A stretch of DNA of 64,000 bases, from positions 1 to 64,000 of the IMG/VR virus record IMGVR_UViG_3300014205_006828. The stretch is one strand, 5' to 3'. The DNA comes from a virus. Its lineage: Duplodnaviria > Heunggongvirae > Uroviricota > Caudoviricetes. Below are positions 4,937 through 5,425 of this stretch, in pieces. A model generated the notes under the pieces. It was not told the DNA's origin, searched no databases, and was given only the letters and a program-made list of their open reading frames with translations. Position numbers and translations under genes: made by a program. Within the stretch, counting starts at the first letter, position 1. Every line of letters begins with the position of its first letter.

Positions 4937-4961
4937 ATTAGGATACTAAAATATCGGTGAA

Positions 4962-5267
4962 CTACCCACAGGACGAGCCTGTGGGCTTCCTTTCGGCCCT
5001 TCGGGCATCAAGGCATTTGAATTCGGCCTGTTCCATGCCGAATTGTAGAATATTTACTGCTGCATTAATATCTCTATCATGTTCTTTCCCACATTTATCA
5101 CATATCCAAGCCTTGCGGCGTAGCCGCATCCGGGCTAAGAGCCCGGACGGGGTTTTCTCGCCACGATTTTCATAAATCAAATATTTAACAAGAGTTTGGG
5201 GGTGTCTTATTCTTAGAAACCGGAATTTCTTGCGCCTTATTTCCTGTCTTGATCGTATCTCTTCCAC
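4962..5267 (-). pseudogene. tnpB: C-terminal remnant of an IS200/IS605-family TnpB (OrfB) RNA-guided nuclease. Zinc finger plus RuvC-III motif only
   Basis: [21 protein letters not shown] matches the TnpB C-terminal CxxC..DRD.NAA.NIL signature. The ORF is ~100 aa versus ~400 aa for an intact TnpB, and its start is non-ATG. The 3' end overlaps stable hairpins (CCCACAGG-acgagc-CCTGTGGG at ~4969-4990; GCCC-ttc-GGGC), as expected for an omegaRNA/right-end region. Confidence 0.6.
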
Positions 5268-5425
5268 TAACTTTCACTGTGATACTTGCAACGCAACGTG
5301 GGTTGTATCTGATCTCTTTGACAGTATTCATTTTATACCTCGGGCATTAGTATCTGGCTATTTCTAGCACTATTAATATGCCAACCTATGCTTATCCTAT
5401 TCGGCCGAGGTGCCCGTAATTTCTG

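Follow-up and report, generated by a model that had tools for sequence, protein, structure and literature searches.

Is a fragment of a TnpB gene with hairpins at its 3' end, found in a phage genome, the debris of a mobile element, or an RNA that is still in use? The question is raised by a locus in a 64,000-nt stretch of DNA from a tailed phage (Caudoviricetes; IMG/VR record IMGVR_UViG_3300014205_006828, positions 1 to 64,000; here called the window), where an earlier note had described a decayed IS605-family TnpB close to a gene for a major-vault-protein (MVP)-like protein. That description is borne out by a Pfam match (PF07282) and by DNA homology to an intact element from a metagenome locus (L016). 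The minus strand of the window from 5176 to 4957 is probably a dead, internally deleted and non-functional copy of a TnpB-only (IS1341-like) element of the IS200/IS605 family, in which about 220 nt are left of a parent element of 1,299 bp, the length of the intact L016 copy. Ordinary genome decay of a mobile element is the most likely account. The relic is a degenerate, unnamed IS200/IS605 element of a well-known kind, similar to the non-autonomous mini elements called PATEs (Meers et al., PMC10055086) yet, as discussed below, immobile. Its boundaries, its deletion junction and the corresponding empty site are now defined.

An internally deleted copy of a TnpB element

The relic consists of the following parts, in the order in which they are read on the minus strand.

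5172 to 5176, minus strand: TTTAT, candidate target-adjacent motif (TAM), directly 5' of the left end; it would be the insertion target if it is a TAM
5109 to 5176, minus strand: remnant of the left end (LE), corresponding to the initial 68 nt of the parent element and identical at 68 of 68 positions to L016 nt 1-68 and to a related mini element, L014
5108 to 5110, minus strand: deletion junction, with a CT at 5110-5109 that is common to both parental segments (microhomology)
4962 to 5108, minus strand: 3' remnant of tnpB, 48 codons and the TAG stop, located by the PF07282 match and by tblastn with an intact 385-aa TnpB (P0008)
4957 to 5108, minus strand: segment equivalent to the omegaRNA scaffold, which begins at the junction and extends over 152 nt up to the terminus of the right end, with 148 of 152 nt identical to the intact L016 copy

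In a blastn comparison of the 1,299-bp L016 element with the window, element nt 1-68 match 5176-5109 at 100% identity, and nt 1146-1299 match 5110-4957 at 97.4% over 154 nt, the CT overlap included; beyond these two segments, the 64-kb window holds no further match to the element. The two matches abut with a 2-nt overlap, in agreement with the alignment of L016 and L014, and the window element has therefore lost about 1.08 kb from its interior. The 1,077-1,079 bp missing at the junction comprise the remainder of the LE, the start of tnpB and its codons 1-337, and the LE/tnpB junction of the relic reads …GCCGCAAGGCTTGGATATGTG….

The limits of the full-length element were set by comparison of copies, namely of locus L006 with L010, and of L016 (1,299 bp, 385-aa TnpB). 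L006 and L010 both carry full-length TnpB genes (about 380 aa). Their similarity begins some 105 nt before the ATG and reaches to the end of GTAGTTCAC, after which a few flank bases still agree, and its extent delimits the element. In all three full-length relatives an LE of 105-140 nt is followed by tnpB and the right end, and tnpA is absent.

These observations suggest a simple history. The parent element would have inserted, probably directly 3' of TTTAT or TTAT, into a spacer of about 32-34 nt between two co-oriented phage genes, here called ORF48 and ORF115, in the same orientation as these genes. Later, about 1.08 kb lying between two CT dinucleotides would have been deleted, and with it the 3' half of the left-end fold, the start of tnpB and codons 1-337, leaving 68 nt of the LE, the final 48 tnpB codons and a complete three-hairpin 3' omegaRNA module that runs to GGGTAGTTCAC.

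The protein remnant

The open reading frame (ORF) that spans the relic (4962 to 5267, minus strand; 101 aa) begins with GTG, as the earlier note had recognized in reporting a non-ATG start. Aligned to the TnpB profiles, a comparison that the same note had proposed, residues 50-73 match PF07282 (Cas12f1-like_TNB, formerly OrfB_Zn_ribbon) with 35 bits (E = 1.6e-8; cut-off 26.3 bits), over profile positions 37-60 of 60 and including the CDKCG motif. The surviving TnpB is shorter than the roughly 100 aa that had been supposed: DNA homology to intact elements begins at 5110/5108, and the TnpB-derived part is confined to 48 codons (WICDKCG...GSSCG, 5108-4965). In a tblastn search with P0008, the only match in the window is this remnant, where the homology starts at codon 338 of 385. 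ORF residues of about 31-53 are the non-coding left end of the element read as codons, while residues 1-30 are phage flank, overlapping the 3' end of ORF48 in a different frame. The earlier note had also seen a zinc finger together with RuvC-III. The RuvC-III aspartate is indeed present, as the third acidic residue of the RuvC D-E-D triad (in DRDINAA) and the only one encoded, but the zinc ribbon is reduced to its second CxxC. The parent TnpB, P0008, contains PF12323 (N-terminal HTH/WED-REC), PF01385 (RuvC core) and PF07282 (Zn-ribbon TNB), whereas in the window ORF the first two are unmatched and the third is partial. The window copy is a TnpB fragment and not a TnpB. With RuvC-I, RuvC-II, WED/REC and half of the zinc ribbon lost, it would be unable to yield a nuclease.

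The homologues P0003-P0007 share an unusual C-terminal tail ending in RKPTGSSCG. In public records the locus appears as a 55-aa 'transposase' (P0002) and a 101-aa 'hypothetical protein', both of which are probably annotation artefacts of the 220-bp relic. The 90%-identity cluster of P0002 also lists an unrelated 558-aa Na/Pi-cotransporter-like protein (P0129), apparently a clustering artefact of the database.

The right end and its RNA module

The 3' part of the relic contains a compact structured module, followed by the terminus of the element.

5020 to 5044, minus strand: hairpin H1, AATTCGGC-ATGGAACAG-GCCGAATT, overlapping the FGMEQAEF codons
4989 to 5013, minus strand: hairpin H2, with outer stem CCTT/AAGG and inner hairpin GCCC-GAA-GGGC (4996-5006)
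4965 to 4985, minus strand: hairpin H3, CCCACAGG-CTCGT-CCTGTGGG, the right-end subterminal hairpin
4957 to 4964, minus strand: right-end terminus TAGTTCAC, with 4957 the last base of the element

Two of the hairpins had been pointed out earlier, at the position where a functional TnpB locus encodes its omegaRNA scaffold. The perfect 8-bp hairpin is H3, although its loop has 5 nt rather than 6, and the GCCC-ttc-GGGC hairpin is the inner part of H2; the larger H1 (AATTCGGC/GCCGAATT) had been missed. The placement at the scaffold position has held up, and the three-hairpin module covaries over 11 loci. The alignment of these distinct loci (about 95 nt; RNAalifold and manual structure) has 94.5% of its cells paired, a proportion that falls to 25-46% once the 3' partners are displaced by 1-3 columns. 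Double compensatory changes are found in 11 of the 25 pairs, and none of 500 shuffled controls attained the observed pairing or covariation score. In H1, whose stem in the 11-locus structure is AATTCGGN/NCCGAATT, the loop-closing pair varies between C-G, U-A and G-C. The outer stem of H2 alternates between CCTT/AAGG and CTCT/AGAG, and its inner stem between GCCC/GGGC, GAAC/GTTC, GAGC/GCTC and GGTTGAC/GTCAACC, while H3 (8 bp, 5-nt loop) has double compensatory changes in five of its eight pairs.

A covariance-model search, likewise suggested in the earlier note, gave a divided result. Rfam 15 returned only noise for 4000-6500 at E <= 10, with no relevant family, while a purpose-built model of the 11 loci (R1) finds the window copy at 4953-5048 on the minus strand with 95 bits (E about 1e-16), and no second copy in the 64 kb. 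The window RNA (5170-4938) has a minimum-free-energy z-score of -5.3 and a fold that contains the three hairpins. For seven longer copies RNAalifold also predicts a closing helix, UGGAY/GUUCA, which spans exactly the 152-nt segment and is invariant, without covariation.

Conservation in a DNA alignment of four loci runs to GGGTAGTTCAC and then stops abruptly, and the same is seen in all loci of the family; such a sharp end is the signature of an insertion-sequence right end. Within the terminus, AGTTCAC is invariant across the 11-locus alignment, one locus reading CAGTTCAC, and L014-L017 likewise end in GGGTAGTTCAC. The relic therefore retains the kind of right end that characterizes IS200/IS605 elements, in which a subterminal hairpin is followed by a conserved terminus. 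In its 3' half, H3 shows homology to the hairpin at the LE of intact copies (GGCTCGTCCTGTGGG followed by TAGTTCAC at the right end, against GGCTCGTCCTCGGGG followed by ATGAAT at the left). In position and covariation, the module matches the expectation for the 3' scaffold of a TnpB omegaRNA, which is at the same time the subterminal structure of the right end. Its conserved structure is inherited from the active family and is not evidence for function of the window copy. The alignments provide a compact covarying three-hairpin model of omegaRNA and right end, together with a left-end fold, for a TnpB subfamily without an Rfam family, which is found mostly in huge-phage-like contigs. A terminator-like site was flagged at H3 on the plus strand and was set aside, there being no plus-strand gene upstream; the U-run on the minus strand is not adjacent to the stem.

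The left end, the candidate target motif and mobility

The earlier note had proposed looking for an IS605 left end or a TnpA remnant between 5268 and 5425. Nothing IS-like or TnpA-like is found there, and that interval contains a conserved 48-aa phage gene; the actual LE, itself truncated, is found at 5176-5109, within what had been taken for coding sequence. The LE remnant contains two nested GC-rich hairpins (CCGGGC/GCCCGG at 5131-5147 and GCGGC/GCCGC at 5115-5127) and lacks the 3' strands of the closing stems as well as the ATGAAT foot. When an intact LE is folded as single-stranded DNA, it forms an outer stem CGTGGCG/CGCCCG and an inner closing stem CCCCG/CGGGG, and the window copy is without the 3' strands of both. 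The outer stem covaries between subfamilies, as GGCG/CGCC versus GCAA/TTGC in the L010 subfamily. The two GC-rich hairpins of 5160-5111 were not found in the first set of homologues, and alignments of the LE to copies of distant subfamilies (L010, L006, L008 and L013) were non-significant, the top alignment being 5175-5148. Two copies of the same subfamily, the mini element L014, whose left end is complete, and L016, later proved that 5175-5148 belongs to the LE. The window, L014 and L016 all carry TTTATGAAAATCGTGGCGAGAAAACCCCGTCCGGGC...GCCGCAAGGCT, and their upstream flanks are unrelated. In L016, L014 and the window (5109-5160), the 5' arm of the LE hairpin holds two extra nested GC-rich hairpins compared with the simple LE hairpin of L010 and L006; the LE of L008 has a different nested hairpin at the corresponding place.

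TTTAT, CTTAT or GTTAT precedes the LE in six element copies from three subfamilies, and the next 8 nt vary between subfamilies. This suggests (T/C/G)TTAT as a candidate TAM, although the bases may alternatively be part of the left end. TTTAT and CTTAT both occur in the spacer of a related contig without the insertion (L022, described below).

No Y1 HUH transposase TnpA was found by tblastn in the window or the fetched loci, with an IS608 TnpA sequence as the query, and on this account the family looks like the tnpB-only (IS1341-like) group. IS608-type TnpA requires both subterminal hairpins (PMC10055086). As the 3' strands of the LE are missing and its hairpin is broken, excision of the relic by a Y1 transposase should no longer be possible, and the relic should be immobile. 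Pattern scans of the viral and genome collections gave no match to the left-end or junction sequence, and the window has no second copy of the element by blastn, tblastn or covariance model.

Relatives of the element and known systems

Relatives were retrieved through right-end sequences: a first-hairpin pattern led to nine viral-contig loci, and the right-end hairpin of the window, searched against a metagenome collection, to four loci (L014-L017). Of the nine, L006 and L010 are full-length, and the others are deletion derivatives in which the 3' part alone remains. All family loci were thus fetched by right-end patterns, which biases the sample towards copies that retain this end. The sister loci keep right ends of 44 nt (L014), 80 nt (L015), 90 nt (L005, L013, L007 and L012) and 132 nt (L008), so that most sister deletion derivatives are too short for a whole scaffold. 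This graded retention points to random decay rather than selective retention. Selection for the right end was considered and set aside in view of the ascertainment bias and of retained lengths that range from 44 to more than 500 nt.

Several relatives illustrate other forms of the family. A 208,980-bp viral contig (IMGVR_UViG_3300035208_003026) carries both an intact TnpB element (L010, 6791-6885) and a protein-less mini element (L005, 13352-13446), and the same mini element, including the sequence upstream of H1, lies at a different site on another contig (L013, 828-922). L005 and L013 are genuine mobile PATE-like derivatives of the family. Another 5'-truncated TnpB (168 aa; L001, 827-1333) abuts a Thg1-like gene. 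Among species-representative genomes, the H1 pattern found a real module on one Patescibacteria metagenome-assembled-genome contig (4 kb; L020, 1774-1873) and two chance matches; the Patescibacteria module is possibly a weak hint to the host, or else a mis-binned phage contig.

One of the closest known systems is ISDra2 TnpB of Deinococcus radiodurans (PDB 8BF8/8EXA/8H1J). The 385-aa parent TnpB matches it over residues 3-367 (E = 2e-70) and has the same three Pfam domains. Both systems have a structured RNA that overlaps with the tnpB 3' end and stops at the right-end boundary, and the guide comes from the flank, as is usual in the TnpB/omegaRNA architecture (PMC10055086, PMC10097598). The window copy differs in lacking 337 of 385 codons and half of the left end. 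Its three covarying hairpins are unrelated in sequence to ISDra2, its pseudoknot-type long-range pairing is only predicted, without covariation, and its candidate TAM is TTTAT/TTAT instead of TTGAT. The full-length relatives L016, L010 and L006 share with the tnpB-only IS1341 group the arrangement of LE, tnpB and right end without tnpA, but the window copy, as a deletion derivative, is not even tnpB-only.

Like a PATE, the relic is short, protein-less, built of end sequences and in possession of an omegaRNA-encoding right end, and true PATE-like minis (L005/L013, L014 and L008) exist in its family. PATEs, however, have both end hairpins and occur in multiple copies, whereas the window element has a truncated LE fold and one copy, which marks it as a relic rather than a PATE. 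TnpB-type elements are also known from large phage genomes as 'transposases' (Clostridium phage c-st OrfB, Lactobacillus phage 521B). In the GenBank phage collection, a near-identity search gave no match and a distant search gave only 57-64-nt matches to other phage tnpB genes. These DNA matches to the window cover the DRD/NAA codons at just 77-81% identity, and the genes are intact and belong to other subfamilies.

The empty site and the neighbouring genes

The element lies between two phage genes, upstream of the MVP-like gene on the opposite strand.

5185 to 5331, minus strand: ORF48 (48 aa), upstream phage gene, whose syntenic counterpart in L022, an ORF of 64 aa, is 56% identical; outside the element
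4941 to 4956, minus strand: guide-equivalent flank CGATATTTTAGTATCC, 16 nt 3' of the right end, with the ATG of ORF115 following at 4936
4589 to 4936, minus strand: ORF115 (115 aa), downstream phage gene, 70% identical to a 112-aa ORF in L022; outside the element
5528 to 8176, plus strand: MVP-like gene (Pfam MVP_shoulder, 4.6e-27; Vault_3), in a phage-like genome

Retrieval by MVP led to the viral contigs L021 (215,808 bp) and L022 (391,957 bp), whose MVP genes are 71% identical to that of the window. Both contain homologues of the window genes upstream of MVP in the same order and orientation, ORF334 among them (75% identical to its L022 homologue). In both, the homologues of ORF48 and ORF115 are separated by 32 nt without any match to the R1 model. 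When 5171-4957 are removed, the window spacer is 34 nt long and aligns with that of L021 and L022, and the relic is therefore a simple insertion, in sense orientation, in the spacer of an operon. The homology in L022 also identifies ORF48 as a real gene, and hence 5268-5425 as ordinary phage sequence. The uninterrupted allele of the window phage would read …ATATTTGATTTAT joined to CGATATTTTAGTATCC…; a search of the viral contigs gave no allele with exactly this sequence.

Alternative explanations

Three alternatives concern what the relic might be or have done as DNA or protein. The earlier note had suggested that it might be a leftover from the arrival of the MVP gene, a reading that has adjacency in its favour (352 bp from the relic to the MVP start) and a G+C content mildly above the flanks (0.51-0.56 in MVP against 0.41-0.47). 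It is refuted by L021 and L022, which have MVP and the same neighbours without the relic, so that MVP is present independently of the insertion sequence; MVP also lies outside the ends of the element and on the opposite strand, the window contains no second end copy, and IS200/IS605 elements mobilize only the DNA between their left and right ends (PMC10055086). Practically no credence is left for this tempting but wrong link, which is hereby removed. It is extremely improbable that a small, functional, TnpB-derived zinc-finger protein is made from the 101-aa ORF, or from the 55-aa ORF of NCBI, even though the frame is open and public annotations call it as a gene: the first 53 residues of the 101-aa ORF are flank and non-coding left end that happen to be in frame and have no counterpart in any homologue found, a single CxxC pair is left, and recency (97% identity to the intact copy) explains why the last 48 codons are open. 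It is also highly improbable that the relic is a still-mobile, non-autonomous PATE mobilized in trans by a Y1 TnpA. Its family does include real PATE-like minis, with L005 and L013 representing one mini element at different sites, and L014 and L008 retaining a full left end fused to a right end; in the window copy, however, the 3' strands of the inner and outer LE stems and the ATGAAT foot are deleted, it occurs once in the window, its junction and left-end sequence is unmatched in the viral and genome collections, and the search with the IS608 TnpA query found no TnpA in the window or the fetched loci.

The remaining alternatives concern the RNA. In relatives, the genes that flank the relic form a tight operon, and for this reason the RNA of the relic is probably still transcribed, in sense, and would then be a passive 215-nt leader or spacer; no minus-strand promoter-like site is seen in or near the relic by a promoter consensus that may differ from the phage's own. 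Some findings weigh against a purely passive relic. The 152 nt kept upstream of the right-end terminus exceed the 116-nt scaffold that suffices for ISDra2 TnpB (PMC10097598). The predicted UGGAY/GUUCA helix that would close this segment also counts in favour of use, although it is invariant. All four differences from L016 fall outside the stems, although with a chance probability of about 0.2 this carries no statistical weight. Finally, an intact TnpB (P0008, MCK9567760.1), identical to the L016 TnpB, is encoded on the same 463,377-bp contig as the relic protein P0002 (MCK9567898.1), outside the window and 138 accession numbers away, a position known through cluster metadata only, so that the RNA could be loaded in trans. 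The relic might then be a solo guide-RNA gene, whose scaffold, transcribed with the operon, is bound and processed by the TnpB of the same genome. The complex, guided by CGAUAUUUUAGUAUCC, would cut TTTAT-adjacent uninterrupted alleles of the spacer in co-infecting sister phages and so promote gene conversion, as homing or marker exclusion. Earlier work has proposed that omegaRNAs encoded by PATEs are used in trans (PMC10055086), the scaffold-equivalent segment is 97.4% identical to the intact copy with its stems untouched and lies in sense inside an operon, and mini L005 and intact L010 co-occur on one 209-kb viral contig. Such a role is nevertheless unlikely. Sister relics keep 44-90 nt, far below a scaffold, and retention looks random; the apparent constancy of the right end owes to retrieval by right-end patterns; the guide is unmatched in the empty site of L021 and L022, the only relatives found; and the viral collection has no exact empty allele. 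The sole other match of CGATATTTTAGTATCC in the window (47076) has two seed mismatches and no TTTAT, is consistent with chance, and was rejected as a second guide target. That the relic has been retained as a stand-alone guide-RNA gene, loaded onto the TnpB of the same genome and cutting insertion-free sister phages, is quite unlikely. If true, it would mean TnpB-mediated homing or marker exclusion between co-infecting phages, and a step, without an array, towards a CRISPR-like use of TnpB with multiple guides. A scaffold-complete relic and an intact TnpB on one 463-kb genome in any case make a small test case for trans use of orphan omegaRNAs. An exapted cis-acting leader, in which the 215-nt insert serves as a transcript stabilizer, processing site or promoter carrier for the genes from ORF115 onwards, is very unlikely. 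The relic does lie between co-oriented genes with its right end 20 nt short of the ORF115 ATG (4936), and in several relatives too the right end abuts the start of the next gene; but such closeness is expected of any tolerated insertion in a compact phage genome, relatives manage with a 32-nt spacer and no insert, and no minus-strand promoter-like or terminator-like site lies within the relic. Passive, non-functional retention is the most likely state of the relic.

Other features of the window

The 463,377-bp contig that carries the relic is labelled 'Candidatus Pacearchaeota archaeon' at NCBI, but by its content it is most likely a huge phage; the GenBank phage set contains no close relative. 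The window contains genes for a phage-type ribonucleotide reductase, a tRNA nucleotidyltransferase and homing endonucleases. The large subunit of the ribonucleotide reductase (58757-62140, minus strand; phrog_84, 9e-107) has an HNH-endonuclease-like insert at residues of about 286-425, possibly an intein or a homing-endonuclease insertion, and a further ORF (49391-50692, minus strand) is homing-endonuclease-like. There are 14 tRNA genes between 3314 and 38131, nine of them clustered at 23.8-31 kb; the anticodon loop of the one at 38058-38131 (tRNA-???) is aberrant. On the minus strand, two neighbouring ORFs of about 100 aa (1592-1894 and 1891-2202), their translations judged by eye, are apparent tandem paralogues, and both contain ...DTDWDSFKELW.DV..FM..HP.H.I...DDP..GR.GWVA....

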